In this document: positions 958-20,173 of the stretch, piece after piece
How positions within the stretch are numbered: position 1 is the stretch's first letter
Layout: the number at the start of each line of letters is the position of its first letter
Origin: a virus
Lineage: Duplodnaviria; Caudoviricetes
Strand: one strand, 5' to 3'
IMG/VR virus record: IMGVR_UViG_3300021185_003040
Location: 59,788 to 123,787 of that record
Length of the DNA stretch: 64,000 bases
The notes under the pieces: generated by a model
The model's database searches: none
Told to the model about the DNA's origin: nothing
The model's input: only the letters and a program-made list of their open reading frames with translations
Made by a program: the position numbers and the translations under genes

Positions 958-3006
958 TTACCAGCTAGCGGCCCATACAAATTCAAAGTTATGTTTCTTA
1001 CAAAACTTTTCAATCATATCTGAAATCTTAGCTTGGGCAGCTTCGTACTTAGCGTAATCTCTTCCATCTATAATATTATAAGCACTTTCACCATATTCAT
1101 CAGGATGTCTTAATTCTCTTGGCTCGTCAGTCTTATAATAAACTTTCTTTTCAGCTGTTCTAATATAAGGCATTCTTAATTCTATTCTTCTATGTGCTTT
1201 TCTTCCGCTTGCCTTTGCGATGTCATATTGCTTTTCGATTCTTGGCTTTAATCTAGTCCATTCGGCTAATATTTTATCATTAGCTTTAAAACCTGCTAAA
1301 ATAGTTTTCATGTCAAATTCTACTCCGTTTACTCTTTTGTAATCTTTGAAAACTCCAACTACATCATCCATAAATTTATCAAAGCTAGAAATAGATTGAT
1401 ATGATCCATGGACAATTCCCATACCCCATTCATCTTCTACCTTTCCAGTTGATACTTTTTTGGTTCCATTGAATAATTTTGCAAATGAATAATTAGGTCT
1501 ACGAGTTGAGTTGTTAGAAGAAAACTTAAATACTTCATGTTTCCATGATTTTCCTCGAAGATCAATAGCTAAACACAAATTACCTCCATAATTCCATTCT
1601 GATCTATAAACTCTACATCTAAATTGAATTTTTGGAAATTCCTTTTTTAAACGCTCTGCCATTTGTAAACCATTACCGAAGTTAGATTCTCTTTTGTATG
1701 CTTCTTTACATTCTTTAGATTTTCTAGCAATAGCTAAAACCTTACTTATTGTATAGTATGTTTCTGAATCGAATATTTCATCATCTGTTTCTTTATCTAA
1801 AATAACATCTTCATTAATAGATTTTAAATGAGTCAGTTTAGTGGATGTTGATTCTGCAAATGCTTCAATATCCCATTGGATTCTTTGCATTGGATCATCA
1901 CCTCTAAAGTTTTTCTCAACCCAATCAATAAGACCTGGTTCGAATTGGGCGTTTTGTGCCATATCATAGGCATTCTTCCAACCGTCGTTTGATGCAACGT
2001 CTTCTAACCATTGGTCATATTTCCTTTGAGTCCATCTTACTTTCTTAACAGCTTTCTTATGAGGACCAGCTCCTAATGTTGACTTTACAGTATTGTAGTG
2101 TTCTGGACCTGCAAATACGCCTTCTGCCCATTCTTGATCTCTTTTATTACCGTCCCAATATTTAATTTCTTTTCTGAATCTTCTTAGTGAATAATTACCA
2201 CCTTCAATTTGTTTACGCTTTGTTACTTCTCCTTGTCTGTAACCTATTTCAATCTTCTTTTCTTCGGCAGTTTTAGGATCCATTTCGAAATGTAAAGATT
2301 TTACTAAATCTCCAATACCATCAAATTTACCTTCAGTAACTACTGATTCATCTAAACCTAATGATTTATTAACTAGATCTTCAATAACAGTAGAATAATC
2401 GTCCTTCAAAGCCCATTTAATTGTTTGACCTTGACTTCTTGCTTTTTTGTTTATCCATTTAAGATGTGTTGCATCAGTAAGAAACTCGGAAGCTTCTTTT
2501 GCAATTCTCTTTGGATCCTTTTTCCATTCTTCAATAGTAGTGCCAAAGTTATTACCGTATGTAGAACCATTAGTTCTTTTAAGGTTATTGATTCCACCAA
2601 TCTTAATGTATATGTCATTATTAATAGGCATTGCTTCAAAGAAAACTACATCTCTTTCTTCTGGGTTGTTTTCACCAGATAATTGATCAATAGCATAAGT
2701 ACTATGAACTCTCCAAGTAGGTTCGCCCTTTACATTGTATGCTGCTGAGTGCGTATCTCCACCAAATTCAGAAGCTTTTAACTTATATGCTTTAGCTTCA
2801 TTGGTGGATCCGAAAGATTCAAATGATATAATGTTTTTCATTTCGCGTTGTTTCTTTTTATTTCTCTTCTTCTTATACTCTTCTTCGGCATCTCCCTTTC
2901 CGGCTGGAATATCCCCTGATCCAACTGATGTTTCAGTTGGTAAAGAGACTTCTCCCATTCCGGCCATATCGCCAAGTGATAAGTTTTCGTTTTCGTTTAA
3001 TTCCAT
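958..3006 (-). CDS. Putative internal head (poly)protein
   Basis: 682 aa; internal leader-like MKNIISFESFGSTNE|A; further sites DESVVTE|G and KSINE|D. Confidence 0.55.
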   Translation of the reverse strand: MELNENENLSLGDMAGMGEVSLPTETSVGSGDIPAGKGDAEEEYKKKRNKKKQREMKNIISFESFGSTNEAKAYKLKASEFGGDTHSAAYNVKGEPTWRVHSTYAIDQLSGENNPEERDVVFFEAMPINNDIYIKIGGINNLKRTNGSTYGNNFGTTIEEWKKDPKRIAKEASEFLTDATHLKWINKKARSQGQTIKWALKDDYSTVIEDLVNKSLGLDESVVTEGKFDGIGDLVKSLHFEMDPKTAEEKKIEIGYRQGEVTKRKQIEGGNYSLRRFRKEIKYWDGNKRDQEWAEGVFAGPEHYNTVKSTLGAGPHKKAVKKVRWTQRKYDQWLEDVASNDGWKNAYDMAQNAQFEPGLIDWVEKNFRGDDPMQRIQWDIEAFAESTSTKLTHLKSINEDVILDKETDDEIFDSETYYTISKVLAIARKSKECKEAYKRESNFGNGLQMAERLKKEFPKIQFRCRVYRSEWNYGGNLCLAIDLRGKSWKHEVFKFSSNNSTRRPNYSFAKLFNGTKKVSTGKVEDEWGMGIVHGSYQSISSFDKFMDDVVGVFKDYKRVNGVEFDMKTILAGFKANDKILAEWTRLKPRIEKQYDIAKASGRKAHRRIELRMPYIRTAEKKVYYKTDEPRELRHPDEYGESAYNIIDGRDYAKYEAAQAKISDMIEKFCKKHNFEFVWAASW

Positions 3007-3009
3007 ATC

Positions 3010-3327
3010 TTAATATTCAAATGGTGGAGTTCCATAATCACCTTGTTCGATGCCATACCATACTCCTGATACTTGTAAATACCACCATCCATATTTAGTG
3101 TCGTCTACTACTTTAAATTTCTTAGGTAATTTAACAGATTTTTTTGGAGCTCTAGCAATATACTTTAAAACTGGAACACCATCATCCCATGTTTTTTTAG
3201 TAGATCTTGCTTGAACTGATTGTCCATCTGAAAACGCATCAAATGCTTTTGCATCTTCTATTTCATCTGCTAATAAATCGATAGCTGATTCATTAATGTA
3301 TTGTTCAAATAATTTTACTTTTTTCAT
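3010..3327 (-). CDS. Putative internal head protein
   Basis: N-terminus MKKVKLFEQYINE|S resembles the T4 capsid-targeting sequence MKTYQEFIAE. Confidence 0.6.
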   Translation of the reverse strand: MKKVKLFEQYINESAIDLLADEIEDAKAFDAFSDGQSVQARSTKKTWDDGVPVLKYIARAPKKSVKLPKKFKVVDDTKYGWWYLQVSGVWYGIEQGDYGTPPFEY

Positions 3328-3328
3328 T

Positions 3329-4663
3329 TTACCAAACTATGTTTTTATTATCCCATTTAGCCATTCTTTGCTTAAGCTCTAGTGCTTTACGCTTAGCATC
3401 TCTCATATACCAAGAACTTGATGAACCGAATTTTTCTTCTTCAGTTTTCATATTAACGTATGCTGAAACATATCCTTGATAATCTGACAATATATTTGCA
3501 ATATAATTGGTTAAATCTCTAGGTCTAATTTCTCTTCCTTTAGGGTCTTTTCCTATTGTTAATTCGTTATAGTTTCCTAATTCTTTTTTAGCTAAACCAG
3601 CCATTAAGAATTGGTGTGCATCTTCGATAATTTCTTTAACTTTCTTGTCTATTTTATCTGGGTTATCAGCTTTCTTCGCAAGAATATCGTTATACCTTGT
3701 TAAGTTATCCTCTTTGATTTTCTTAGGGTTTGTAAGTGCAGTAGCTCCAGATTTTGCCTCTGCTCTTGCAGATGTCTTATCATCGGTAGATAAAGAAGCT
3801 CTTAATGTGTCTAAATTAATAATGTAACATTCGTCAGACATTTCCGCAATTCTTTTAATGTTACCTAATCCCGTTCCACTATATTGGTTGTGTGATTTGT
3901 TAACACCGACAGTATCTTTAGATCCAGGGTATTTACCCATGTTCTTAAGTCTTCTTGTGTTTTTCTTACCACCTATTGTGTCGCTGTTTCTATTCCATAT
4001 TGAATCGTTCTGAAACATTTCATTTTTTCCATTAGAAACAGCTAATAAACAATTTCCAGGAATCATTTCAACATATCTTCCGGAAGAAGGAGCATATTCA
4101 TTTTCTTTTTCATTTCTAGAAATCCAAAATACAATTACGTTTCCGAATGTTTTTGCTTTCTTATAAACTTCAACTGGGTTGCTATTAGAAATTATCATAT
4201 CATCGGTAACTTTATCTAGTGCTACTTTAGCAAGACCGTATATACCTTTAATTAATTCCTTACCACCTTTTTTGATGTCTATTAATCCTCTTAACTTGGA
4301 AGAAGCTAGAGCTTCATTAAGTTTTAAAGATTCAGTTGCTCTGTATTTTGCAAATTTACCCTTTTTAATTGTTTTAACTAATTCAGCTTCGCTATCGTCA
4401 ATATTGCCATATACATCATTATGTGTTGCTGCGTTTACTATTTCACCAGCATCACCAATAAAATAAGTTCCTCCTGCATATTCGTCTCCATCCATATCTA
4501 GATCAAAACCACCGGCATCTAATGAATTTTTAGAAATTGTGAATTCTTTTCCGTCTGCTTTTGAAAGAGCAGCTGCTAATTTTTTTGCTATTTTAGCAGT
4601 ATCTTTCTGCTTCATAACCTTTGCTTCATTGATAAAATTATCGAAGTTAGTATATAGTTTCAT
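3329..4663 (-). CDS. Putative internal head protein, two modules
   Basis: N-terminus MKLYTNFDNFINE|A; internal TESLKLNE|A. Confidence 0.55.
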   Translation of the reverse strand: MKLYTNFDNFINEAKVMKQKDTAKIAKKLAAALSKADGKEFTISKNSLDAGGFDLDMDGDEYAGGTYFIGDAGEIVNAATHNDVYGNIDDSEAELVKTIKKGKFAKYRATESLKLNEALASSKLRGLIDIKKGGKELIKGIYGLAKVALDKVTDDMIISNSNPVEVYKKAKTFGNVIVFWISRNEKENEYAPSSGRYVEMIPGNCLLAVSNGKNEMFQNDSIWNRNSDTIGGKKNTRRLKNMGKYPGSKDTVGVNKSHNQYSGTGLGNIKRIAEMSDECYIINLDTLRASLSTDDKTSARAEAKSGATALTNPKKIKEDNLTRYNDILAKKADNPDKIDKKVKEIIEDAHQFLMAGLAKKELGNYNELTIGKDPKGREIRPRDLTNYIANILSDYQGYVSAYVNMKTEEEKFGSSSSWYMRDAKRKALELKQRMAKWDNKNIVW

Positions 4664-4687: not shown

Positions 4688-4695
4688 TATATATC
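4688..4695 (-). promoter_or_regulatory. Class-2 (putative late) promoter GATATATA
   Basis: Recurring motif at about 14 gene boundaries in the window. Confidence 0.6.
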
Positions 4696-4697
4696 TT

Positions 4698-7600
4698 TTA
4701 ATGTAAGGAATCATGTGCTAATTCATTAGCTAAGTCTGGATTATCATCTGTGAAATCTGATAATTCTTCGTCAGTCATTTCTTTTCCATTAGAATATTCA
4801 CCATAACTAAAGAATGCATCTGTGAAATCTGGATAATCTTTCATATCAACATCTTCCATTTCTAATGAACTAATATCTACTTTCTTTCCTTTAAATTTAA
4901 TATAATTAGCTTCGTTAATAAAAGATTCTAATGTTAAACTAACAACTGGTTTAATTCCAGTTAATATTCTTTTTCCAAATTTAGAAAGACCAATTCCATT
5001 TTCACTTACTGTAAAGTATTTAGAATTTCTTCTCATCCATCTTTTATTATCGATTGATTTTTCTTTTAGAATATTATTGAATTCTTCTTCTGTTAATACA
5101 CCATCCGCTAATGCCTCGATCATTGCGTTTCTGACTTTAGCAGTTCTACCTGAAGTTTGTGCAGGATGATTATCGGTATATCTTCTTTTTATTTGAATTT
5201 TAGATTCTCTAAGACCCGGTTTCATTACGTTTAATTCCCACCACTGTTCTAATTGGTGATAAATATTTGCACCCATGTTTGAAATCATGAAGTCAATTAC
5301 ATCATCATAATTGTCTTTTTCATCTTGATAAAAACCAGGAGTATCGATATATTCTTTACCCATTATCTTTCTAACTGCTCTTTCTGGCATAGCATCGATT
5401 TCTTTTAAAAATTCTTCGAAATCTTCATCGTTTTTAAAACCCTTAGCTTCAATAACCATTGATTCCATTAGGCCAATAGCAATCTCTCCAACTTCTCTAT
5501 CGCCGCCGTCAACATATCTTTTGTTAAGTATTGCAAATTTAAAACCATCTGCTTTTATCGTATACATTGGCATCATACTATCACTATAGTCGTATTTGTA
5601 TTTACCTGCTTTTAATTCTTTACCGATTGCAAAGAAATCTTTAGCTTTACCTACTAAATCTGCAAGATTATCTAAGTGGTCACCAGCGTCGTCCTTTTCA
5701 TTAACTAATGATTCATAAACTCCTTTTTCAATGTTCTTGATTAAGAGTTTAGCACCCTTCTTGTCAAGTTCATTTTGAATAAAGTCCATCATTTCGTTGG
5801 GATCTTCAGCATCTATACCAAATTCAGATGCTAAGTTTTGATATGCATCAAATTCCATATTAGAAATAGTGTCTTCTAAGTCTGCATACACATCTTCATT
5901 AACTGCTGATTCTACCATTACTAGCCCTATATCCTTATATGCTATTTCATGCTCTCCACCGTCTTGATCTAGTGCAAATACTGATTTATCATGCCACATT
6001 GCAGCATTGTCATCGTTATTAGAATCAGGATTATAAATGATATATTCTTTTCCGTTTCCGGTTTGAATCATTGCATCATCTGCATCTCCTAATTTTTTTA
6101 ATAATGACTTTTTAGTATACCTTTCTTCAACAGCTTCACCTGACGTATATTCAAAATCATTATATAGTGCCTTTAACCATTCTAAAAACTCTGGAGTTTT
6201 CTTCATTACTTTCTTATGTCCGTATTCTTTAAAGAATTCTTTCTGAAAAGTATCAAATGATTTGTGATTACCTATCATTTGGTGAATGTCAGACATAACA
6301 CCCTCACTGATAACTAATTTTACATCTTTGTTTTTACCAGCTACTGCATCATCTAGTTCATTTGTAAGAGCTTTCTTTTTTGCTGTTAAATCTATTAGCT
6401 GCTGTCTAGTTGCTGCTTTCTCATCACTTCCATCTTCCGCAGCGATGTATATCTTTACAATATCTTTCATCTTATTAACTGTTTCTCCAAATTCCTTTGA
6501 AATCTTGTTAATAGATCTAGCTTCTAATATATTAGATTCTTCAATGTATTCTCCTAATTCAGGATCGTCCCATCCATTAGGATCGGCTAATACCGATTGT
6601 AAATCTTCTCTTGAACCTGTCATTTCAACTTCTGGCCAATTGCCACCAGGGCCGTTCATTGTTAAAACTTTCATTTTAACATTATATTTCTTTAAAAGCT
6701 TTTTGAGTGTTTTTGATTTAGGATCTATTGCATCCATTACTACAGTAGCTTCATTTAAATTTTCGTCTAGCTTATCAAAGAATCCACCATGTTCACTTTG
6801 TAAATCTTCACCATACTTGTCGTCCCATATTTTAGCTAATTCATCTTTAGTAATTTTACCTTTATATTTTCCCATGATTTCAACATAGACACTACCATAT
6901 TCATATTCAAAATCTTCACCATAAGAAAAATCCCATGCCTTTTCAACATCTTTAATTGTAAGCTTTTTGGCTTCAGTAACCTTTGATTCATACCATCCGT
7001 TTTCGTAATCGTCATCATCTTCATAATCATCATACTCAGGTTCTTGATACCATGATTGATTTGGATCAGATTCTGCTTCTTCAGTAAAGTCATGTCTTTT
7101 CCAATTAAATCTTGGATCTTCAACTAATGCAGGGAATAATGTCTTTTTCTTTTTATCTTTGGTCTTTATTTTACCGAATGCTAAATCAATACCAAGTTGT
7201 CTTAATTCTTTAAATGAACCTTTCATTGTTTTAACATCTTCTTCAGTATATCCATTCATTGTAGCAACAAGATCATAATAATCCATTCCACCAAATTCAC
7301 CATATCCTTCATAATCCTTTTCCGTCCACTTGTTACCCATATTATCATACATAAATACTGTAATCATGTTCTGTCTTTCAGAACCTATTTGTGTGTTTGT
7401 ATCGGATGTAAGCCATGAAAATTGACCTTCAACTATCATCTGTTCATGTAACAATTGAGCACCAGTCGTTACAATGTTTAAATAGCTTTCAGGAATTCCA
7501 TTTACAAAGTTATGTAATTCTGGTTCGAAATCTGGCATACCACATGCATATCTTGGATATGTTGCTCCTTCTGTATTTACAAGAATACTCATTCCATAAT

Positions 7601-7916
7601 ACTCTCCAAGCTCACCTGATTCAGTGTTACAATATAATACAAATACCTGTGGCACTTGAACTTTAAAGTTAGATTGTAATGGATATTCGTTATGACATCC
7701 TAATTCTTTAGTAGTGTATACGTCTAAGGAATGTAATTCTTTATCATATTTAGTTAATTCTCTATATGGAATAGAAGCTCTTTGGTTAAATAGATCTCCC
7801 CAATAAGAAGGCTTTCTCAAGGAATATTTCCCAGAAACCTTTTTGTATACTTTATATAAATCAACGTTTTCGTTCATTGAATTTACAAAGCTTTCGAATG
7901 TTTTTTTAGTGCTCAT
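4698..7916 (-). CDS. Putative multi-module internal head polyprotein
   Basis: 1072 aa; leader MSTKKTFESFVNSMNE; about 12 recurring (ES)xx[NT/hydrophobic]E junctions. Confidence 0.6.
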   Translation of the reverse strand: MSTKKTFESFVNSMNENVDLYKVYKKVSGKYSLRKPSYWGDLFNQRASIPYRELTKYDKELHSLDVYTTKELGCHNEYPLQSNFKVQVPQVFVLYCNTESGELGEYYGMSILVNTEGATYPRYACGMPDFEPELHNFVNGIPESYLNIVTTGAQLLHEQMIVEGQFSWLTSDTNTQIGSERQNMITVFMYDNMGNKWTEKDYEGYGEFGGMDYYDLVATMNGYTEEDVKTMKGSFKELRQLGIDLAFGKIKTKDKKKKTLFPALVEDPRFNWKRHDFTEEAESDPNQSWYQEPEYDDYEDDDDYENGWYESKVTEAKKLTIKDVEKAWDFSYGEDFEYEYGSVYVEIMGKYKGKITKDELAKIWDDKYGEDLQSEHGGFFDKLDENLNEATVVMDAIDPKSKTLKKLLKKYNVKMKVLTMNGPGGNWPEVEMTGSREDLQSVLADPNGWDDPELGEYIEESNILEARSINKISKEFGETVNKMKDIVKIYIAAEDGSDEKAATRQQLIDLTAKKKALTNELDDAVAGKNKDVKLVISEGVMSDIHQMIGNHKSFDTFQKEFFKEYGHKKVMKKTPEFLEWLKALYNDFEYTSGEAVEERYTKKSLLKKLGDADDAMIQTGNGKEYIIYNPDSNNDDNAAMWHDKSVFALDQDGGEHEIAYKDIGLVMVESAVNEDVYADLEDTISNMEFDAYQNLASEFGIDAEDPNEMMDFIQNELDKKGAKLLIKNIEKGVYESLVNEKDDAGDHLDNLADLVGKAKDFFAIGKELKAGKYKYDYSDSMMPMYTIKADGFKFAILNKRYVDGGDREVGEIAIGLMESMVIEAKGFKNDEDFEEFLKEIDAMPERAVRKIMGKEYIDTPGFYQDEKDNYDDVIDFMISNMGANIYHQLEQWWELNVMKPGLRESKIQIKRRYTDNHPAQTSGRTAKVRNAMIEALADGVLTEEEFNNILKEKSIDNKRWMRRNSKYFTVSENGIGLSKFGKRILTGIKPVVSLTLESFINEANYIKFKGKKVDISSLEMEDVDMKDYPDFTDAFFSYGEYSNGKEMTDEELSDFTDDNPDLANELAHDSLH

Positions 7917-7936: not shown

Positions 7937-9016
7937 TTAAACTCGGTTAGGCTTTATTTTATATTTAAATTTACCTTGTGTAATAGAATATATTTGTAAT
8001 TTGCTAGTTTTTCCAGGTAATTTCTTGTAATAGTGAAAAGCTACTATTTCATGATCTTTAGACTCTATAAAAAGGAATGGAGTAGGTATATCTCCTACTG
8101 CTGAAATTACATCGTCTTGTATTTCAGTAAATGTTCTAACGGAAGGCTCAGTCTCTATTATACTTTTAATTTTTTCTGCAGTTTTAGAGTCACTTAGCTT
8201 TCCTAATTCTACGTCATTAAATTTAATTACTAATGCGCCGTTATCTTTATCTCCAGGACCTATTTTAAAATCTCTTTCACTAGAAGAAAGGGCCTGAATA
8301 TCTGTCTTAGTTAAATTTTGAATATGCTTAAATCTTTTTCCACCTACAGTTCCCCATTCATTTATCCAACCTCCACCGGCAGCCATATCTTTACCATCTC
8401 CGTCCGGGTTGATTTCTTCAATATTATATTTTACTGCGTCATATAATGCCGTTAACTTCGGTACATAAGTACTATTAATTCCCTGGTGTTTTGCACCTGT
8501 TCTCCAATTTTGTAACATGCCCTTTGACATTTGAGCTTCTTTTAACTCACATTTACCAAGGGGTGGTTTAATTGGTGACCACCTTTCATTATATAATTCT
8601 AAGTCAGTATCGGCCGCACCTCCACCTATTTTTATATTTTCTACAATATACGCTAGCATTATTTCTCCAGCACCAATTCCATTATCGTCTCTTCCAATAT
8701 TAAACAATTCGTTTGCTTCGCTTTTATTTAACATTAAATATTGAAAAACTACTCCGAATGTATCGTCATCCATTTTAGAAAGCCATAACCTACCATCAGG
8801 TTGTTGTTTAACATCCTGTGTTGAAGTAAACTTAACACCTTGCCATGGACACTTATTCTTTTTAAATGTTCTATTAATTGAATTAAATAAATTCTGTTGG
8901 GCAGCCTTACTGCCGGTTGATGCAACTCCAATATAGGATTCTATAATTAATGCTTCATTTTCAGCATTGGTTTTTGCAGCACTATGTAGTGCTCTTTCAA
9001 AATCGTACCTATCCAT
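7937..9016 (-). CDS. Putative PD-(D/E)xK-fold nuclease
   Basis: GxGE...D.DL...ELK arrangement (GAGEIML, DTDLEL, CELKE) resembles a restriction-endonuclease-like active site. Confidence 0.45.
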   Translation of the reverse strand: MDRYDFERALHSAAKTNAENEALIIESYIGVASTGSKAAQQNLFNSINRTFKKNKCPWQGVKFTSTQDVKQQPDGRLWLSKMDDDTFGVVFQYLMLNKSEANELFNIGRDDNGIGAGEIMLAYIVENIKIGGGAADTDLELYNERWSPIKPPLGKCELKEAQMSKGMLQNWRTGAKHQGINSTYVPKLTALYDAVKYNIEEINPDGDGKDMAAGGGWINEWGTVGGKRFKHIQNLTKTDIQALSSSERDFKIGPGDKDNGALVIKFNDVELGKLSDSKTAEKIKSIIETEPSVRTFTEIQDDVISAVGDIPTPFLFIESKDHEIVAFHYYKKLPGKTSKLQIYSITQGKFKYKIKPNRV

Positions 9017-10880
9017 TGTTTTCTAAAAATTGTTTAAATGTTAATAATGATTCAGTGACTTCATTTGATTCTGAAGCACCTACTGAATCTTCTAATTTTT
9101 TCTTAAGTTCACCATACATTTTATGTAAGGCCTTTGGTGTTGTAGACTTAAATAGTTTTTCATCTCCGTCTAACATTGCATTTCTAACCTGAGTCGCTGA
9201 AATATTATTGTCTGTTCTTGGAATTTCAAATAATCCAAAATCACTCCTAACTCCAAGATCTTCTCTATAAGAATCTTTATTTACTTGGAATCCGTAAGTT
9301 TTCATTCTATCGCTTCCTGTTCCCCATAATACGGGTTCATAAGTTGGTCTCATTGCATTGAACATTGTATCAATACCTCCGGTTGGAATTACAAAGATTT
9401 CTTTTAAGAATGGATATTGTTTTTGAACCGCCTTAAACATATCTAATTGTGTCTTCTCATCATAAGGTCTTTTAAATGCATCTTCCTTTTTCTTATTCTT
9501 TGCTTTTACTAATAAAACAACCACAGGATATCCATTTTCTTTGTGTATAGTTTCTAATACTTTAGCATGTCCAAGTGTAAATGGTTGGAATCTACCAACA
9601 AACATATTTACTAATTCTCCTCCTTGTTCAGGATGATCTACTTTAAGTGCTTCATTTAAATTAACACTTGTCTTTACTTTATTATGTAATATGAAATTAT
9701 TAAAGTCGTATATGGAATTTTCATCGGTATTCTCTACAAATACTTTCTTATCTATAGTTTCTACTATTTGATTTAAATGCTCTAACATTTCTGCATTTAT
9801 GATATCGCTTTCCTTGCTTCTCTTTTTTCTAAAAGAACCTAAAGTTATTTTAAATAATTCTGCAAGTATTTCGTTTTCAACATAAGAAAGAGTGGTCTCG
9901 TTCTTAATGTATTTAGTATTTAGTTTAAAGGAATCTGAATCTGCAAAATCAGCTGATTCAAAGTTAACACCAATAAACTTAGCAGAGTGTTCTTTAACAT
10001 ACGTATTAAACATCACTGACATTAATTCAATATATCTCCAGTCTGCTGTTTCTTCATTTAGTTGAATGTCTTTCATTTCAAATGTAGAAATAAATTCAAT
10101 AAGACCAGCAATAGTAATTTGATACATGTGGCTTGATCTCTTATTTTCACTAACAGTTCTTGTAAAATCTTCTAATTTAAAAGATCTAGATTTTTTCTCA
10201 TCAATAAAAGAAACTATTAATCCGTCAATTTCTACTTCAAAGTCTTCATTTAACGTAGGAGAAATTGCATTTGGATTAAATGTCTTAATCATCTTTTGGG
10301 TAAAAGGTAATCTTGCATCTGTATTTGGATCATAATCAAATGCTTCAGAAAACTCCTTATCTGACATAGATAGAACAGTTATTAATTCTTCTTTTTGCAT
10401 TTGAGATAACATACCATCAAATACAATGCTAGGTCCTTGAACCTCTAATATCTTTGACCATTTATTTAATATAACTGGATCGCTAATTGTTTTTTTAATC
10501 TTACCTGATTCATTCATAGTTTGAATGTGAGTAAGTATTAAATTGTTTTTAGGCAGTTTAGTATATTTATATTCTGACACGTTTAATTCAGGTAAATATT
10601 CAAAACCAAATTTCCAATCATGTGGCATTTGTTCCTTTATACTAGGATCTAGACTTTGGATGTGCTTGACACCTGTTTCATATAAACCTACTATTGTTCT
10701 GTCTATCATGTTCATTCTAGAATCTCCAGATTTGTAATATTCAAATTTAGTCTGGTTTCTTCTAACGTGAAATGAAGCTCCTTGTATTTTTTCAGTTACT
10801 AGAACCCTGCTATTCAACATATCTTGAAATGCATTGATATTAGTTTCCTGAAATACTTGTCTTAGTTTTTTAAGTGCCAT
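9009..10880 (-). CDS. Fusion of an ATP-dependent-ligase-like N-terminal domain and a HIGH-family nucleotidyltransferase (NadM/NMNAT/cytidylyltransferase-like)
   Basis: N-terminal TEKIQG, FGFEY, DGLIV, FKL (ligase motifs I/III/IV/V-like); C-terminal GRFQPFTLGH, GSDR and ISATQVR. Confidence 0.7.
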   Translation of the reverse strand: MALKKLRQVFQETNINAFQDMLNSRVLVTEKIQGASFHVRRNQTKFEYYKSGDSRMNMIDRTIVGLYETGVKHIQSLDPSIKEQMPHDWKFGFEYLPELNVSEYKYTKLPKNNLILTHIQTMNESGKIKKTISDPVILNKWSKILEVQGPSIVFDGMLSQMQKEELITVLSMSDKEFSEAFDYDPNTDARLPFTQKMIKTFNPNAISPTLNEDFEVEIDGLIVSFIDEKKSRSFKLEDFTRTVSENKRSSHMYQITIAGLIEFISTFEMKDIQLNEETADWRYIELMSVMFNTYVKEHSAKFIGVNFESADFADSDSFKLNTKYIKNETTLSYVENEILAELFKITLGSFRKKRSKESDIINAEMLEHLNQIVETIDKKVFVENTDENSIYDFNNFILHNKVKTSVNLNEALKVDHPEQGGELVNMFVGRFQPFTLGHAKVLETIHKENGYPVVVLLVKAKNKKKEDAFKRPYDEKTQLDMFKAVQKQYPFLKEIFVIPTGGIDTMFNAMRPTYEPVLWGTGSDRMKTYGFQVNKDSYREDLGVRSDFGLFEIPRTDNNISATQVRNAMLDGDEKLFKSTTPKALHKMYGELKKKLEDSVGASESNEVTESLLTFKQFLENNG

Positions 10881-10890
10881 ATTATATTAT

Positions 10891-12261
10891 TTATCTTCCG
10901 TACTTTATGATTCCCATCAGCTGATTGATAGCAGCAAAAGTACCTGTTAGTTTCATAGTCTTTCCTTTATATACAAAAACTATTCCTTCAGTTGGTATGA
11001 TAGATTCTACTCCTCCAATTCTATCTAATCTCTCTAGTTCTTTCATTACCTTTTCGATCTGAGTAACGCTTCCATCTTTTTTGATCTTTTCAGATTCTGA
11101 TCTAATTTGATTATGTAGTCTTTGCATCTCTTTGTCTGGATTTGCAGCTACAAAATTAGAAGCATTCATAAGAATTATAGACCCTAGTTCTAAAAATAAA
11201 TCTTCAAACGGTCTAATGTTTTCTTTATATTTCTTTTTAACATCTTCTTTGTCAAATTTCTTAACAGAAGCAGCTTCATCTTTTCCTATCTCCTTTGCAA
11301 GTGATCTCATATTTAAAGACTTTTTATCTCCATAAGCCCATCTTAATAATAAACCTTCCTTATAGTCTTGTTGTAAATCGGGGAAATTTGCATCTATTGT
11401 TTCTCTCCACCACATTTCATGATATCTAGAAACTTCGTCACCGTCTGTTAAGTTATAACGATCTCTTAATTTTTCAATCTGCTTTATAAATTTAGCTTGA
11501 TTTTTATCAAAATTAATATCTTTACCTAGTTTTAAAATCTGAGGAGGAATTATTGTAAATGTCTTTTGAACATCGGCATCTACTTCCTTTAAAGCTTTGA
11601 CTAATTCTCCTGCTATTTTTCTAGATCCTGTAATATTACCATTCCCATCAGTTTCTTGAATATCGTGAAATTGAAGAACATCTCTTTCGTAATAGATTAC
11701 ATTTGGGTTTTTAGAATAGATTAATTCTATATTTATAAAATCTTTACCGTCATTAAATATGGACTGATCTTTAATTTTTGGAAGAGCTTCATTTAGATCT
11801 TTAGCTGCAAACACGTATGTTTCTCGCACTAAAGGTACCTCATGCTTTTCAAACATTTCTATAATACCGTCTAAATCAACGGGACTAATTAATTGACCTT
11901 TATTTCTAGAAAACATCGTAACTCCGTTTTTTACGGTTGCTAATAGATTTTGACCGTCTGTTTTTTCAGTGGCTACCTCTTCAAAGTTTAATTCTCCTTG
12001 AAGACCAGACGTTACGATCTTTTTAAAATCTGCGAATGTTAAATCTTTTTCATCGAAAGGATGAGACATGTGACCAGCTGCACCGCCTTCTAAGATTAAT
12101 TCTTCTTTAAGTGTATTGTATTTTTCAACGATATATTCATCAAATGATAAAACTTTACTCTTATTTTCACTCATATAATGTGCAACATATTCCTCTCTGG
12201 TCATGCCATGTGCATCTGCGTGATGTTGAATAAAATCTACGAAGTTGTTATTTAGTTCCAT
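10891..12261 (-). CDS. ATP-dependent ligase-like nucleotidyltransferase (conserved T4-like phage family, possibly DUF6267-related)
   Basis: LILE|GGAAGHMSHPFD, TEKTDGQN (KxDG), EGIVF and KLTG. Confidence 0.6.
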   Translation of the reverse strand: MELNNNFVDFIQHHADAHGMTREEYVAHYMSENKSKVLSFDEYIVEKYNTLKEELILEGGAAGHMSHPFDEKDLTFADFKKIVTSGLQGELNFEEVATEKTDGQNLLATVKNGVTMFSRNKGQLISPVDLDGIIEMFEKHEVPLVRETYVFAAKDLNEALPKIKDQSIFNDGKDFINIELIYSKNPNVIYYERDVLQFHDIQETDGNGNITGSRKIAGELVKALKEVDADVQKTFTIIPPQILKLGKDINFDKNQAKFIKQIEKLRDRYNLTDGDEVSRYHEMWWRETIDANFPDLQQDYKEGLLLRWAYGDKKSLNMRSLAKEIGKDEAASVKKFDKEDVKKKYKENIRPFEDLFLELGSIILMNASNFVAANPDKEMQRLHNQIRSESEKIKKDGSVTQIEKVMKELERLDRIGGVESIIPTEGIVFVYKGKTMKLTGTFAAINQLMGIIKYGR

Positions 12262-12280
12262 GTATATAGCTAATATAATT

Positions 12281-12314
12281 AAAAAACTTGACCCGGAAAA
12301 ATCCAGGTCAGTTT
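12281..12314 (-). terminator. Intrinsic terminator
   Basis: Minus strand AAACTGACCTGGA-TTTT-TCCGGGTCAAG followed by T6. Confidence 0.8.
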
Positions 12315-12328
12315 ATTTTTATTTTTTA

Positions 12329-14455
12329 TTATAAATATCTATCGATAAATTCTTCTTTGCTACCAACAAATGATCTAGTCTTTGGGCCAAAAAGAACAAT
12401 TTCAGCACCTTTTGATTTAAGCCAATCTGCGACTTTTTGAGCTTTTTTCTTATCAGCTGATAACCATACTGTGTCAAATTCAGAACCGTGAGACCTTTGC
12501 ATTACAATACCTCCTTTTTCATTTGTAAATTTAAACTTATCTCCAAGAGCAACACTTACTTTAATATTTTTATCAAAATTCTTTTTATGATTCTTAAAAG
12601 AATATGCTAAAGCACCTGAGTAACTTTTAGTGTCAGTTGTAAATTCATCTAAAGATGTAGTAGTACCTTCATAAATATTTGATTCAAATGCTGGAACTAA
12701 TCCAGTTTCTCCGTAGATATCTGCCATCATCCATTTTTTAGAACCTTCATCCCATAAATAAACGAATTCTGCACCACCTTCGTAATTTGCATCTTTAATA
12801 TATTTGTTAATATTCTTAACATTACCTTTCATCAGATTAACATCTCCGCCATAGAAATTAATTTTCTTAACGTCTTTATCTAAACCTGAATTATCTCCAT
12901 TTTTAAGAACAAAATCTACATTTTTACCACTTTTAAAGGTTGATTTAATAATAGGCAACATGTTTTCAGGATATGAATCATAGTGAGTATATACTGAAGT
13001 AATATTTCCTTTCTTGTCTATTTTACCAAATTGACCTCTAGTTCCTTCATTAATTACATAATTGATTACTTCGTTAAATTTAGATTCTTTTAAAGAAATT
13101 TCTTCTTCAGTTAATTGAAACTTAACTGATTCTTCTACTGCGTTAAATCCTGCTAATAATTTTTCAGCAAGTTTAGATTCACCAATAGATTCTAAATATA
13201 GAGCAGTGCCTTCAGCAACTCCAATACCTGACCATCCGGCAGCATTTGAAATTCTAGAATAATACTCATCTAATATCTGTGATATTTTCTTTGCTCCTAC
13301 TATAATAGCTTGTTTACCAAGAGTTAAAGGATTAACAGTAACACTTCCTAATCTTCCTTTGATAATTTTTTCAGTAGCTGTTCTTTCTCTATGGAAATTA
13401 GCATCAGTTAATGCTTCAGCATAAATATATTTAATAGCTCCTAAGTGAGAAATTTTATCAGCTGTTAAGCTTCCTAGTTCTGCAAATATTTTATTGTATT
13501 GAGTTAATACTTTCTTTGCATCTCTTTTATATTTAATATCTAAGGCCTCATTCATTAATGATTCTCCTAATCCCCAGTAATTTGCGTAATCGTATTCAAC
13601 TGGGAATATACCTAAATCACCTTCATCACCTTCTTCACTTTTAACAATTTTAGCAAGATAGTAATCTCCCTTTGCAGTATCTTCATATCCGTATGAATCT
13701 GCATCTGATCCCATTTCTTTTTTAAATTGTTTTGATATCTTTCTCCAATTATCGATAGCGATTATTTCAACTTCACTTCCAATTGAATTTTCAGTAGTAT
13801 CTCCTACTTTAAATTTAGCTTTTTCAGTAACTAAAGATTCTGAAAATTCTTCAATATGTTCCATATCGATTTCATCTTCTCCCTTTAATTCTTTTTGTAC
13901 TTCTTTAGACTTTACTAATTTTGAAAGATCTTTCATAGTGATTTCTCCATCAATGAAGTCAGCTAGTATATAGTATTGATTAGCAGAAAGTCCTTCACTG
14001 TCTCTAAAATCACCAATTTCTTCAATTGCTGCTTTAGTAACGGTCTTAGCTTCAGTAATCACTGATTCGCTTAATGAATTTCTTAGACCACAGTGTACGC
14101 ATTCTACCGTTCCGTCCTTGTCAATTTGCTTATATAAATGTCCTTTTTTATTAGTACATTTTGGTTCGTCTGATTCAGTAACTTCTTCTGATGCAGTAAC
14201 CTCTTCTACCTCTACTTCTATTTCAGCGATTTCTTCTTCTGAAACATCTCCAAATATTTTTGAGATAATTGATTCTTTCTGATCTTCTTCTAAACCTTCG
14301 AAAGAAGTTAATCCTAATTCATCTAGAATAGCAGCTATTTTACCAACTGATTCTTGTCTTTTTAAATTGTTTTCTTCTCTAAGTTTACTAACAGATTCCT
14401 GTTTTCTAATCTCTGTAAACGATTTAAATGAAGAAATTTTATTAACTTTTGCCAT
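12329..14455 (-). CDS. Putative multi-module internal head polyprotein
   Basis: 708 aa; leader MAKVNKISSFKSFTE; junctions SESVITE|A, SESLVTE|K, GESLMNE|A, YVINE|G and FESNIYE|G. Confidence 0.6.
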   Translation of the reverse strand: MAKVNKISSFKSFTEIRKQESVSKLREENNLKRQESVGKIAAILDELGLTSFEGLEEDQKESIISKIFGDVSEEEIAEIEVEVEEVTASEEVTESDEPKCTNKKGHLYKQIDKDGTVECVHCGLRNSLSESVITEAKTVTKAAIEEIGDFRDSEGLSANQYYILADFIDGEITMKDLSKLVKSKEVQKELKGEDEIDMEHIEEFSESLVTEKAKFKVGDTTENSIGSEVEIIAIDNWRKISKQFKKEMGSDADSYGYEDTAKGDYYLAKIVKSEEGDEGDLGIFPVEYDYANYWGLGESLMNEALDIKYKRDAKKVLTQYNKIFAELGSLTADKISHLGAIKYIYAEALTDANFHRERTATEKIIKGRLGSVTVNPLTLGKQAIIVGAKKISQILDEYYSRISNAAGWSGIGVAEGTALYLESIGESKLAEKLLAGFNAVEESVKFQLTEEEISLKESKFNEVINYVINEGTRGQFGKIDKKGNITSVYTHYDSYPENMLPIIKSTFKSGKNVDFVLKNGDNSGLDKDVKKINFYGGDVNLMKGNVKNINKYIKDANYEGGAEFVYLWDEGSKKWMMADIYGETGLVPAFESNIYEGTTTSLDEFTTDTKSYSGALAYSFKNHKKNFDKNIKVSVALGDKFKFTNEKGGIVMQRSHGSEFDTVWLSADKKKAQKVADWLKSKGAEIVLFGPKTRSFVGSKEEFIDRYL

Positions 14456-14487
14456 TTTTAATGTTTATTTAATTTAGTTTCGTTATT

Positions 14488-15996
14488 CTATATATCTCCG
14501 TCAAATTTGACTTTCTTAATACTATACTCAAATTTCTCTTGTTTATAAATTTTTTGTCTAGCTTTACTGTGTTTGTATAGGTAATTGTCCCATTCGTCGG
14601 TTCTAATGTCATCTACAAAATCGATAATTAATACAGCTTCTTTAGACTCATGCTGCCTTAGACCTCTACCAATTGACTGCCTGATGATCACCTCGGACTT
14701 AAATGACTCTGTAAAGAATATATTGTGTATTTTCTTAATGGAAATTCCAGTAGAAAATGTACCATAACTAGCTACAATAACTACTTCATCTCCTGCTTCC
14801 ATTTTCTTCTTATATTCTTCTCTAATATCTTTATCAGTTCCTCCATCTACATAAAAAACTCTTTTATCTGAGTTTTGGCGAAGTTGTTCGTATATTTTTT
14901 TACCATGTTCTATCCTATGAAACAGAACCAGAGAGTTTCTAGGAACCTTGCCAACGACATTACATATAAAATTAAGTCTACCAAAAGAATTAATAATGTA
15001 ATTTTGTTCTAGTTGAAAAACATCCTTCCTATCATACTTATTAAATGCTAATTCTTCAAATGCCTTTTTGGCGGAATCAGGTGCGTAATTCATTTCAATT
15101 ACCTTTACTTTACATTTAGCGATGTGACCCTGGCTCTGTAAAAATGCAGCCTTAACTTCGCTAATTACAGGACCCGTTTGACTCATTAGTGTTAACTTGT
15201 CTAAAGATCCATCTTTGGGAATTGTACCCGATAAACCATACTTATATTTTGCGTTAGTGCATTTTTGTAATATAGTCTTAATAGAATTAGATTTCGCCTT
15301 ATGGGTTTCATCTACGATAACAGCGTCGAACTGTTGAAAGTATTCTTTGGGCTTTTTAACTAGGGATTGATATGTACCTATTACTACATTCCGGTCTGAC
15401 TTTATTTTCTGACCAGCATATATTTGTTGTATCTTTAGTTTTATTCTATTCTTATTATTGTATTCGTGGAAATCTTCATGAGCCTGTACAACTAAAGAAA
15501 CATTAGGAACTATAAATAGTATTTTCTCTGCTCTTTCTTTTTCTAACATATAAGCTACTGTTAAAAAGCTAATAAGTGTTTTTCCAGCAGACGTTGCTAA
15601 TTCAGCTAAACATCTCCTAAACTTTAGGATATTAAATGCAGTTTCTATTTGATAATCCCTTGGAACAAATTTGCTACCCTCAAAAAATTCTAAAGCCCAT
15701 GCTTCAAATGATTCGGCTCCTATGTTTCTATCAAATAGTCTTTGAATTCCATTAAGTTTAAGATCAAACTTATATTCCTTGCAAATAAGCATAACGTATC
15801 GCCAAAGACCAGCGGGAATCCACTTATCGTCTTTGATATATGAAACATATCCGTCCCATATTCCTTTCTTGACTAAAGGATTAAATCTCCAACTATCAAT
15901 TCTTTTAGTTAAAGATATTTTAATCTGCTCTAGTTCAAGTTCCTCTGCTTCATCAATTCGTAAGAATTGATTATCATCCGTTAGAGTTAAAATCAA
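14488..15996 (-). CDS. uvsW: UvsW-like SF2 DNA helicase
   Basis: WDG N-terminal motif, PRDYQ, ATSAGKT, DETH, GLSGT, FSTGISI and QSIGRGLR. Confidence 0.92.
   Translation of the reverse strand: MILTLTDDNQFLRIDEAEELELEQIKISLTKRIDSWRFNPLVKKGIWDGYVSYIKDDKWIPAGLWRYVMLICKEYKFDLKLNGIQRLFDRNIGAESFEAWALEFFEGSKFVPRDYQIETAFNILKFRRCLAELATSAGKTLISFLTVAYMLEKERAEKILFIVPNVSLVVQAHEDFHEYNNKNRIKLKIQQIYAGQKIKSDRNVVIGTYQSLVKKPKEYFQQFDAVIVDETHKAKSNSIKTILQKCTNAKYKYGLSGTIPKDGSLDKLTLMSQTGPVISEVKAAFLQSQGHIAKCKVKVIEMNYAPDSAKKAFEELAFNKYDRKDVFQLEQNYIINSFGRLNFICNVVGKVPRNSLVLFHRIEHGKKIYEQLRQNSDKRVFYVDGGTDKDIREEYKKKMEAGDEVVIVASYGTFSTGISIKKIHNIFFTESFKSEVIIRQSIGRGLRQHESKEAVLIIDFVDDIRTDEWDNYLYKHSKARQKIYKQEKFEYSIKKVKFDGDI
14489..14496 (-). 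promoter_or_regulatory. Class-2 promoter GATATATA
   Basis: Motif overlaps the uvsW 3' end, upstream of the 708-aa gene. Confidence 0.6.
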
Positions 15997-20136: not shown

Positions 20137-20173
20137 TATAATTGTCTATATTGTTATGGATTATATATCTCTT

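Follow-up and report, generated by a model that had tools for sequence, protein, structure and literature searches.

The open reading frame P0001 occupies positions 12329–14455, on the minus strand, of a 64,000-nucleotide stretch of DNA (the window), which is the right-hand part of the 123,787-bp virus record IMGVR_UViG_3300021185_003040. The record derives from an uncultured marine T4-like phage, has a CheckV completeness of 44% and a GC content of around 32%, and carries nearly all of its genes on the same strand. P0001 is a single frame without internal stop codons (translation table 11) and encodes 708 amino acids; the intact chain amounts to 79 kDa. A preliminary description had proposed that this chain, like a second one encoded in the window, consists of a leader and a series of swappable modules separated by short junctions. 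The leader (KISSFKSFTE, residues 6–15) and the five junctions it quoted are all present: SESVITE (residues 129–135), SESLVTE (205–211), GESLMNE (297–303), YVINE (466–470) and FESNIYE (590–596). The segments it had singled out as a zinc-ribbon-like unit (CTNKKGH, residues 100–106, and CVHC, residues 119–122) and as an SH3/KOW-like unit (KFKVGD, residues 214–219, and VEII, residues 229–232) were also located. From amino- to carboxy-terminus, the chain is made up of the following parts, with isoelectric points (pI) and confidence of the structure models (predicted local distance difference test, pLDDT) where relevant:

14411..14455, minus strand, residues 1–15: leader peptide MAKVNKISSFKSFTE, ending in Phe-Thr-Glu.
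14174..14410, minus strand, residues 16–94: module A, acidic (pI 4.3), the family-wide amino-terminal module, ending in EEVTE.
14051..14173, minus strand, residues 95–135: module Z, a C-x5-H...C-x2-C unit of about 40 residues, ending in SESVITE.
13823..14050, minus strand, residues 136–211: module B, helical, ending in SESLVTE (pLDDT 56–80).
13547..13822, minus strand, residues 212–303: module C, strands and a helix, ending in GESLMNE (pLDDT 73–86).
13046..13546, minus strand, residues 304–470: module D, a helical domain (residues 304–443) followed by a low-confidence tail, with YVINE at residue 470.
12668..13045, minus strand, residues 471–596: module E, an alpha/beta domain belonging to phrog_1987, ending in FESNIYE.
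12332..12667, minus strand, residues 597–708: module F, the basic carboxy-terminal module (pI 9.5, pLDDT 50–76).

An assembly artefact was ruled out because nearly the same reading frame, at 99% identity, is present on 13 separate virus contigs of 10–179 kb, found among the 39 related loci of a virus-contig scan. A different genetic code with missed stop codons was likewise rejected, the frame being open under table 11 and the module starts having no Met codons.

The joints between the modules carry a common motif, E-S-x-[LIVMF]-x-E, of which P0001 has six copies; 5000 shuffled sequences had 0.19 on average, and none reached six. Two of the copies, ESKLAE at residue 431 and ESKFNE at residue 462, are extra ones located in the tail of module D. 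The 1072-residue reading frame at 4698–7916 also contains six copies, where 0.15 are expected, while the remaining 109 reading frames of the genome together contain seven against 4.5 expected. In the best 150 relatives of P0001 the motif is present 265 times (15.2 expected), with at least one copy in 102 of the 150. The connector in these relatives can be written as [V/I/L]-x-E-S-V-V-[T/N]-E|[A/G/S], the bar marking the joint. The two glutamates and the serine (at P5) are fixed by the search pattern; of the other positions, P3 is Val in 193 of the 265 copies, is V, I, L or M in 264 and, under this pattern, is never Ser or Ala. P1' is A, G or S in 216 copies and P8 is V, I or L in 155, so that the connector can be read as two tandem hydrophobic-x-Glu sites. 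Every internal joint of P0001 has hydrophobic-x-Glu in front of it (ITE, VTE, MNE, INE, IYE and VTE), and in alignment A3 the only invariant or nearly invariant columns are the junction glutamates E211, E298 and E303. At the DNA level, a short and degenerate core, GAATC.. ....TTA.TGAAG, is common to the junctions of both polyprotein genes.

A HMMER scan of 1.84 billion representative proteins returned 296 relatives at E≤1e-3, with lengths between 85 and 1036 residues, each of which matches parts of P0001 only. The ends of BLAST matches to 150 relatives cluster at residue 1 and around residues 205–212, 296–304, 460–471 and 590–600, and the residue that precedes an aligned module start in the relatives is a glutamate with a hydrophobic residue at P3 (VNE|A, INE|G, IEE|G, ITE|G). 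The modules themselves are found in different orders, such as A-D-E, A-E-D-C, A-D-E-B, E-D and D-E. Module A is amino-terminal in every match carrying it among the metagenomic relatives, which are 85–932 residues long. Module Z is mobile; in other proteins it is located, for example, at residues 408–451, 438–484 and 228–273, with junction motifs on its borders. Module B has homologues in P0004 (at residue 529) and P0083 (at residue 501), and its position is the most variable slot among close relatives. Fifteen matches to module C align from its first residue, each preceded by hydrophobic-x-Glu. More than 60 matches begin at the start of module D, again after x-E|, and about 80 begin at the GTR of module E, straight after hydrophobic-x-Glu. 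Module F has an internal homologue in P0029, following ESVITE|.

Several modules also exist as standalone proteins with a leader of their own, and these leaders end at the residue where the polyprotein has its joint. The 230-residue protein P0095 reads MKHFKLYNEFLNE|AISVKYKRD, with a leader ending in EFLNE|, where P0001 reads ESLMNE|ALDIKYKRD at the start of module D; the leader of P0117 ends at the same boundary. For module E, the 138-residue protein P0099 has INE|GTRS where P0001 has YVINE|GTRG, and P0115, P0110 and P0070 are further standalone forms. The 122-residue protein P0084 has FEDFVNE|GNT where P0001 has ESNIYE|GTT, at the start of module F, and module C is found alone, with its own leader, as P0138. 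Single-module homologues in which the leader ends exactly at the junction thus include P0115, P0117, P0070 and P0138, in addition to two from related loci. Because the standalone leaders end exactly at the polyprotein junctions, the connector and the leader are interchangeable markers of a module start.

At the equivalent locus next to uvsW, related phages differ in their module sets, with flanks that are nearly identical. Distant loci keep the order uvsY, uvsW, polyprotein, 456-residue protein, 623-residue protein, 359-residue protein and second polyprotein, with UvsW 71–99% identical; the polyprotein in these loci has 832, 740, 528, 525, 644, 706 or 582 residues and contains other sets of modules. 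Some of these modules are shared with the 1072-residue gene of the window: residues 387–477 of the latter are 81% identical to part of the uvsW-locus polyprotein of locus L032, and residues 816–868 are 87% identical to part of that of L034. The first 95 residues of P0001 are shared by 121 proteins, and the precomputed Pfam annotation contains no domain in the 120 of these relatives that are listed. When 46 relatives in which these 95 residues are 92–99% identical are cut at their connectors, 22 architectures result, or 17 among the 41 chains of at least 638 residues; the shorter chains may be truncated reading frames and the cutting rule misses joints without the strict motif. The orthologue in L012 matches P0001 in 53–60 of 60 bases per DNA block outside gaps and has an 18-nucleotide gap in the acidic part of module A. 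It contains two in-frame insertions, of 204 and 186 nucleotides, each consisting of one module with its own connector; their positions coincide exactly with the joints B|C and E|F. Their breakpoints are ambiguous within the connector, since the insertions are flanked by connector copies. P0001 is therefore a modular string, the modules of which are swapped exactly at the joints, as the preliminary description had suggested. Its view that the two polyprotein genes are independent instances of one leader-plus-junction design also holds, with the motif shared by both genes and homology breaking at the junctions.

The stretch is contained in 20 of the 24 listed sequencing runs, six of the 20 being RNA libraries, and P0001 is covered whole by contigs in four RNA runs; the upstream ends of these contigs, at 14467, 14555 and 14607, do not coincide. 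Contigs from RNA runs are uninformative on transcription, strand and transcript ends, the thin cover of uvsW is not a finding, and no inference about expression is drawn from them. Some metatranscriptome contigs (X15, X16 and X18) diverge from P0001 at 13824 (residue 211, the B|C joint), 13074 (residue 461), 13113 (residue 448), 14192 (residue 88) and 12329 (the end of the gene), and one contig lacks 120 nucleotides inside module D. These contigs appear to represent module variants that occur side by side in natural populations.

AlphaFold2 models were calculated for residues 304–708, with an alignment of 57 rows, and for residues 93–303, with one of 18 rows. In the first model, residues 304–443 form a helical domain with pLDDT above 90 and residues 471–591 an alpha/beta domain with pLDDT above 93, connected by a segment (residues 444–470) with values of 55–61; residues 592–615 are below 50, the carboxy-terminal module F is poorly modelled, and the overall predicted template modelling score (pTM) is 0.45. 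In the second model, module Z has pLDDT values of 36–54, module B of 56–80 and module C of 73–86, with segments below 50 at each joint. Over both models, five of the six internal joints fall within or border on segments with pLDDT values under 50; the sixth, D|E, lies two residues past such a segment, in a block with a mean of 61. Given the separate confident domains, the low-confidence joints and the pTM of 0.45, no single fold spans P0001, and the full-length fold that would have spoken against a modular chain is not seen.

The modules had also been described as recognisable and captured, of which the searches support neither. No usable match to P0001 was found in Pfam, NCBIfam or a sequence search of the PDB, and the only family assignment is that of module E, of which residues 471–581 match positions 2–118 of the 128 positions of phrog_1987, a family of unknown function, at E=3.9e-10. 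An rSAM match was discarded as noise, scoring 15 bits where the cut-off is 400. With Foldseek, neither model gave a match to the PDB at E≤1e-3. Matches in BFVD are uncharacterised proteins only, from Campylobacter phage PC5 (1.3e-4), Yersinia phage fHe-Yen9-04 and Cronobacter phage GAP32. In the ESM Atlas, module E leads to clusters of viral hypothetical proteins only and module D to nothing above a TM score of 0.5. A tblastn search of 50,697 GenBank phage records gave no relative of the whole gene and a single match, in a Streptococcus phage, to module E only; for the head and helicase genes of the genome, the closest relatives are in an uncultured 462-kb phage, the Lak phages and Tenacibaculum phage PTm1. 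The relatives are all hypothetical proteins of viruses or metagenomes, and nothing in them shows that the modules were captured from elsewhere. For the two labelled units, the underlying patterns stand, whereas the names are not confirmed. In module Z, the C-x5-H...C-x2-C residues are kept in 18 of the 18 homologous copies found, but the pLDDT of 36–54 and PDB matches with E≥0.2 do not confirm it as a zinc ribbon; module C is modelled with strands and a helix at pLDDT 73–86, but has only non-significant PDB matches, at the same E≥0.2, to support an SH3/KOW assignment. The matches to the two units are TFIIB chains, uL14 and CAP-Gly.

Two elements flank the gene on the DNA:

14489..14496, minus strand: promoter-like motif GATATATA, 41 nucleotides before the ATG of P0001, overlapping the last codons of uvsW.
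12289..12310, minus strand: terminator-like hairpin with a 9-bp stem and a T-run, 19 nucleotides past the stop codon.

The coding strand of the genome has 34 copies of the motif [GA]ATATATA and the other strand four, mostly 12–49 nucleotides before an ATG. It lies upstream of the genes for the tail sheath, tail tube, portal, protease-scaffold and tail-fibre-like proteins and of tagged cargo genes, among them a 444-residue gene with GATATATA at 32 nucleotides; copies in the window include those at 20162–20169 and 4688–4695 (minus strand). It does not precede uvsW, uvsY or the genes for the 456-, 623- and 359-residue proteins. The motif may resemble the late promoter of T4. The copy in front of P0001 is kept at the same place in 12 of the 12 related loci examined. 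A scan with the sigma-70 consensus was uninformative (18 sites against 13 expected). The gene had been credited with a class-2 promoter and a terminator of its own. If the GATATATA motif is taken as the former, it is in place; the hairpin exists but is statistically weak, one being found where shuffles of the scanned region give 0.8.

The genome encodes a T4-type head, with Portal_T4 (PF07230, 228.7 bits) and Gp23 (PF07068, 149.8 bits) among the matches, all of them over the cut-offs. Matches to PHROG families include head maturation protease, portal and major head protein. The protease belongs to Peptidase_S77 (PF03420, the T4 gp21 family), with scores of 41.7 and 39.1 bits against a cut-off of 27, and also scores on Peptidase_S80 (30 bits; cut-off 23.4). 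T4 gp21 is described as cleaving after the Glu of L/I-x-E (PMC9026906). According to the same account, 10 residues at the start of IPIII are enough to direct a protein to the capsid; within this tag, targeting depends on residues 4 and 7 and processing on residues 8 and 10, and an Asp at position 10 blocks processing (PMC9026906). In our phage, the protease forms the amino-terminus of a larger protein, located outside the window:

G000:C1:32705-34753 (L041:3705-5753, minus strand): protease-scaffold protein of 682 residues, with Peptidase_S77 at the amino-terminus.

The scaffold part of this protein contains six copies of the tag pattern aromatic-x-x-aromatic-hydrophobic-x-E, against 0.19 expected: five tandem Y-x-x-Y-[L/V]-x-E repeats at residues 247–344 and FFRFISE at residue 536. 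This repetition ties the tag to the head core, and the cargo tag may be a mimic of a scaffold repeat used for self-association and cleavage. About ten reading frames of the genome have a leader of T4-like pattern, including MKTFFEYLSE, MKKVKLFEQYINE, MKLYTNFDNFINE and MAKLKSFEQFLSE, and the strict tag pattern is seven times commoner in the first 12 residues than elsewhere. In the T4 record, IPII and IPIII start with MKTYQEFIAE and IPI with MKTFKEFT; MKTFFEYLSE follows the tag pattern of the former letter for letter. The P0001 leader, MAKVNKISSFKSFTE, has two aromatic residues and the Glu, in another register than IPII and IPIII and closer to the MKTFKEFT of IPI. A 122-residue gene with a leader is located between the portal and protease genes, an interval that in T4 is occupied by gp67 and gp68.

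We propose that P0001 is cargo that is packed into the capsid and cut there, a reading to which we assign a probability of about 65% from the sequence comparisons. Since its joints fit the rule of the head protease encoded by the phage itself, loading of the chain into the head and cutting there are probable. An indirect hint that the protein is present in the mature head, and the only one, is the promoter-like motif in common with the virion genes. P0001 would be made late, from a promoter of the virion type; the leader and module A would bring the whole chain into the core of the assembling prohead, as the capsid-targeting sequence of T4 does for the internal proteins of that phage; and the prohead protease of the gp21 family would cleave every joint behind its hydrophobic-x-Glu. 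This would yield about seven small folded proteins, with predicted pieces of 4.6–18 kDa, which would remain inside the head and pass into the host together with the DNA. At the same time, the connector would be a seam in the DNA for the gain, loss and exchange of whole modules, which would make the gene a hypervariable cassette array. Calling P0001 a polyprotein in the sense of a chain that is cut is thus our inference from its joints. That the cargo serves counter-defence or host takeover is a guess made by analogy with T4 IPI and Alt.

A number of observations weigh against this proposal. P0001 is located among replication and repair genes, outside the head module. Its leader, F-K-S-F-T-E, is off-register compared to the IPII and IPIII tag and has Phe rather than Ile, Leu or Val at P3, and at the connectors Val dominates P3, where the T4 rule as published is L/I (PMC9026906). 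Modules A, B and C are acidic, with computed pI values of 4.3–4.4, in contrast to the basic internal proteins described for phages of the T4 type (PMC9026906). The sister gene of 1072 residues does not have the exact GATATATA upstream, and part of the conservation of the promoter-like motif in front of P0001 may be coding constraint, as it overlaps the stop region of uvsW. Finally, the models of module F and of the zinc unit are poor and, apart from the phrog_1987 match of module E, the searches above gave neither a known family nor a significant match to a PDB fold for any module.

Of the other explanations, the one that survives best, although we consider it unlikely, is that the chain stays uncut, as multidomain beads on a string in which the connector is a flexible linker and the function is exerted by one chain, like that of polyvalent proteins. 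Some of these are described as being delivered unprocessed (N4 vRNAP, ArdC and TraC1; PMC5512222), and the joints of P0001 are modelled as low-confidence linkers, as a passive linker would be. A passive linker would, however, need no invariant Glu, no hydrophobic P3 and no small P1', a combination that matches the specificity of a protease family encoded in the genome, and it leaves unexplained why standalone homologues have T4-type cleavable leaders that end at the same residue. The enzyme domains that are the signature of polyvalent proteins are also absent from P0001 in the Pfam search.

Somewhat less probable again is that P0001 is packed and cut, but that its pieces are structural, as parts of the prohead core, of the scaffold or of an internal body. 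The tag pattern is common to the scaffold protein, the T4 core proteins gp22, gp67 and gp68 are reported to be cut into several pieces (PMC9026906), and giant phages are described as containing large internal masses of protein (PMC5694885). Essential structural parts would be expected to be conserved, yet near-identical leaders are followed by the many module architectures counted above. Whole modules are gained or lost between near-identical genomes, which fits cargo in an arms race, as put forward for the T4 internal proteins (PMC3012670). Modules D and E, moreover, are confident globular domains and not a coiled-coil scaffold. Very improbable is a connector conserved chiefly as a seam for DNA recombination, with no role in cleavage: both polyprotein genes have the junction DNA core, the insertions in L012 are flanked by connector copies and metatranscriptome variants diverge at residues 211 and 461 and at the gene end, but the shared DNA is short and degenerate, the conservation is at the amino-acid level (in P3 and P1') and the standalone genes mark the same boundary with a different peptide, the amino-terminal leader. 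The seam and cleavage roles are compatible, the former being an addition to the latter and not a replacement.

The packed and cut cargo proposed here shows similarity to the internal proteins IPI–III and Alt of T4, although no homology of P0001 to these was detected with Pfam or in the tblastn search of the phage records. Both phages have a T4-type head module with a protease of the gp21 family, and other genes of this genome have amino-terminal tags of the type aromatic-x-x-aromatic-hydrophobic-x-Glu, as in MKTYQEFIAE. The cut, known in T4 and proposed here, is after hydrophobic-x-Glu and before a small residue (PMC9026906), and variable cargo genes outside the head gene cluster are described for T4 as well (PMC3012670). 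In T4, each gene has one cargo and one tag, whereas here around seven modules are joined in one chain behind a single tag. The internal joints are a standard six-residue connector, which is also where modules are swapped as cassettes; Val predominates at P3, and several of the modules have an acidic pI.

Polyvalent proteins, as described in PMC5512222, contain 2–15 distinct domains per chain, compared to around seven in P0001 as judged from breakpoints and folds; it is predicted that they enter a new host together with the DNA, and their mosaicism is explained there by host conflict. What defines them is the presence of recognisable enzyme domains (MPTase, ART, ParB-like, methylases, helicases; PMC5512222), which P0001 does not have according to Pfam and NCBIfam. 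Where processing of polyvalent proteins is proposed in that work, it is by their own MPTase (PMC5512222), whereas the joints of P0001 are sites for a separate prohead protease. The giant phages phiKZ, 201phi2-1 and SPN3US have a gp21-related protease, with cleavage after Glu, and many packaged proteins (PMC5694885, PMC9026906). Several sites per substrate and conserved amino-terminal propeptides among paralogues are also reported for them (PMC5694885, PMC9026906). Their motif is given as S/A-x-E, with the extra sites in propeptides that are discarded (PMC5694885), while P3 of the connectors is, under the search pattern, never S or A and the sites in P0001 separate folded modules, apparently the cargo itself, that are shuffled among relatives. 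Searches of the searchable literature library returned no paper on cargo polyproteins with tag and connector.

Around P0001, the following genes are located in the window:

14488-15996: UvsW-type helicase, directly upstream of P0001.
Beyond uvsW, upstream of P0001: weakly UvsY-like protein.
10891-12261, minus strand: protein of 456 residues, of no known family, downstream of P0001.
9009-10880, minus strand: protein of 623 residues, after the 456-residue gene.
4698..7916, minus strand: second polyprotein, of 1072 residues, with the same type of leader and six junction motifs.
3010..4663, minus strand: single-cargo genes of 105 and 444 residues, with the T4-type leaders MKKVKLFEQYINE| and MKLYTNFDNFINE|.

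In L035 and L036, a homologue of the 105-residue protein forms an internal part of a 507-residue protein. The 456-residue protein has no match in Pfam, PHROG, NCBIfam or the PDB; it contains a leader-like sequence, VLSFDEYIVE, at residues 37–46, and its homologues in the distant relatives L030, L032, L033 and L035 begin at the position of this leader (for example, MKIFTNFNEFMTE). As distant homologues start right at the leader, this protein may be packaged too. Naming it ligase-like, from its K-x-D-G motif, would be a guess. In the 623-residue protein, residues 426–567 are cytidylyltransferase-like (PF01467, 36 bits, with matches to the PHROG cytidyltransferase and NMNAT families), and the amino-terminal 400 residues have no family match. 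Another reading frame of 682 residues, at 958-3006 of the window (minus strand), contains, at residue 56, a Met with a typical leader behind it (MKNIISFESFGSTNE) and, at residue 225, a connector (DESVVTE); the internal Met may be the true start, which would make this another tagged cargo gene. Outside the window, a 445-residue protein (G000:C1:39990-41327) has the leader MNNKILKYDQYLNE|A and a connector-like ESMLLE at residue 132. It has a weak AAA match, belongs to phrog_1250 and has GATATATA 35 nucleotides upstream, the picture being that of an ATPase-like protein with a head tag.

If P0001 is packed and cut, the mechanism by which T4 tags, packs, cuts and injects single proteins would extend to swappable arrays of many modules, and abundant uncultured marine phages would use it on a large scale. 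There are at least 296 relatives, and the 121 chains that share the leader differ in cargo even where the genomes are nearly identical. The tag and the connector would make it possible to predict from sequence which uncharacterised proteins travel with the DNA, and many small folds would thereby become candidates for immediate-early counter-defence. A further step, which we put forward only tentatively and think doubtful as a whole, is that such genes are a phage counterpart of the integron or of the polymorphic-toxin locus: with one tag and one protease-cut connector, any small protein could be plugged in, packed into the capsid and brought to the host before genes are expressed. Marine T4-like and jumbo phages would in that case be equipped with a rapidly reshuffled, pre-made kit for counter-defence and takeover, modules B to F might each be a new family of injected effectors, and the connector would double as the recombination seam. 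The combination of tag and connector could also be used as a design, taken from nature, for filling a capsid with several proteins encoded by a single gene.

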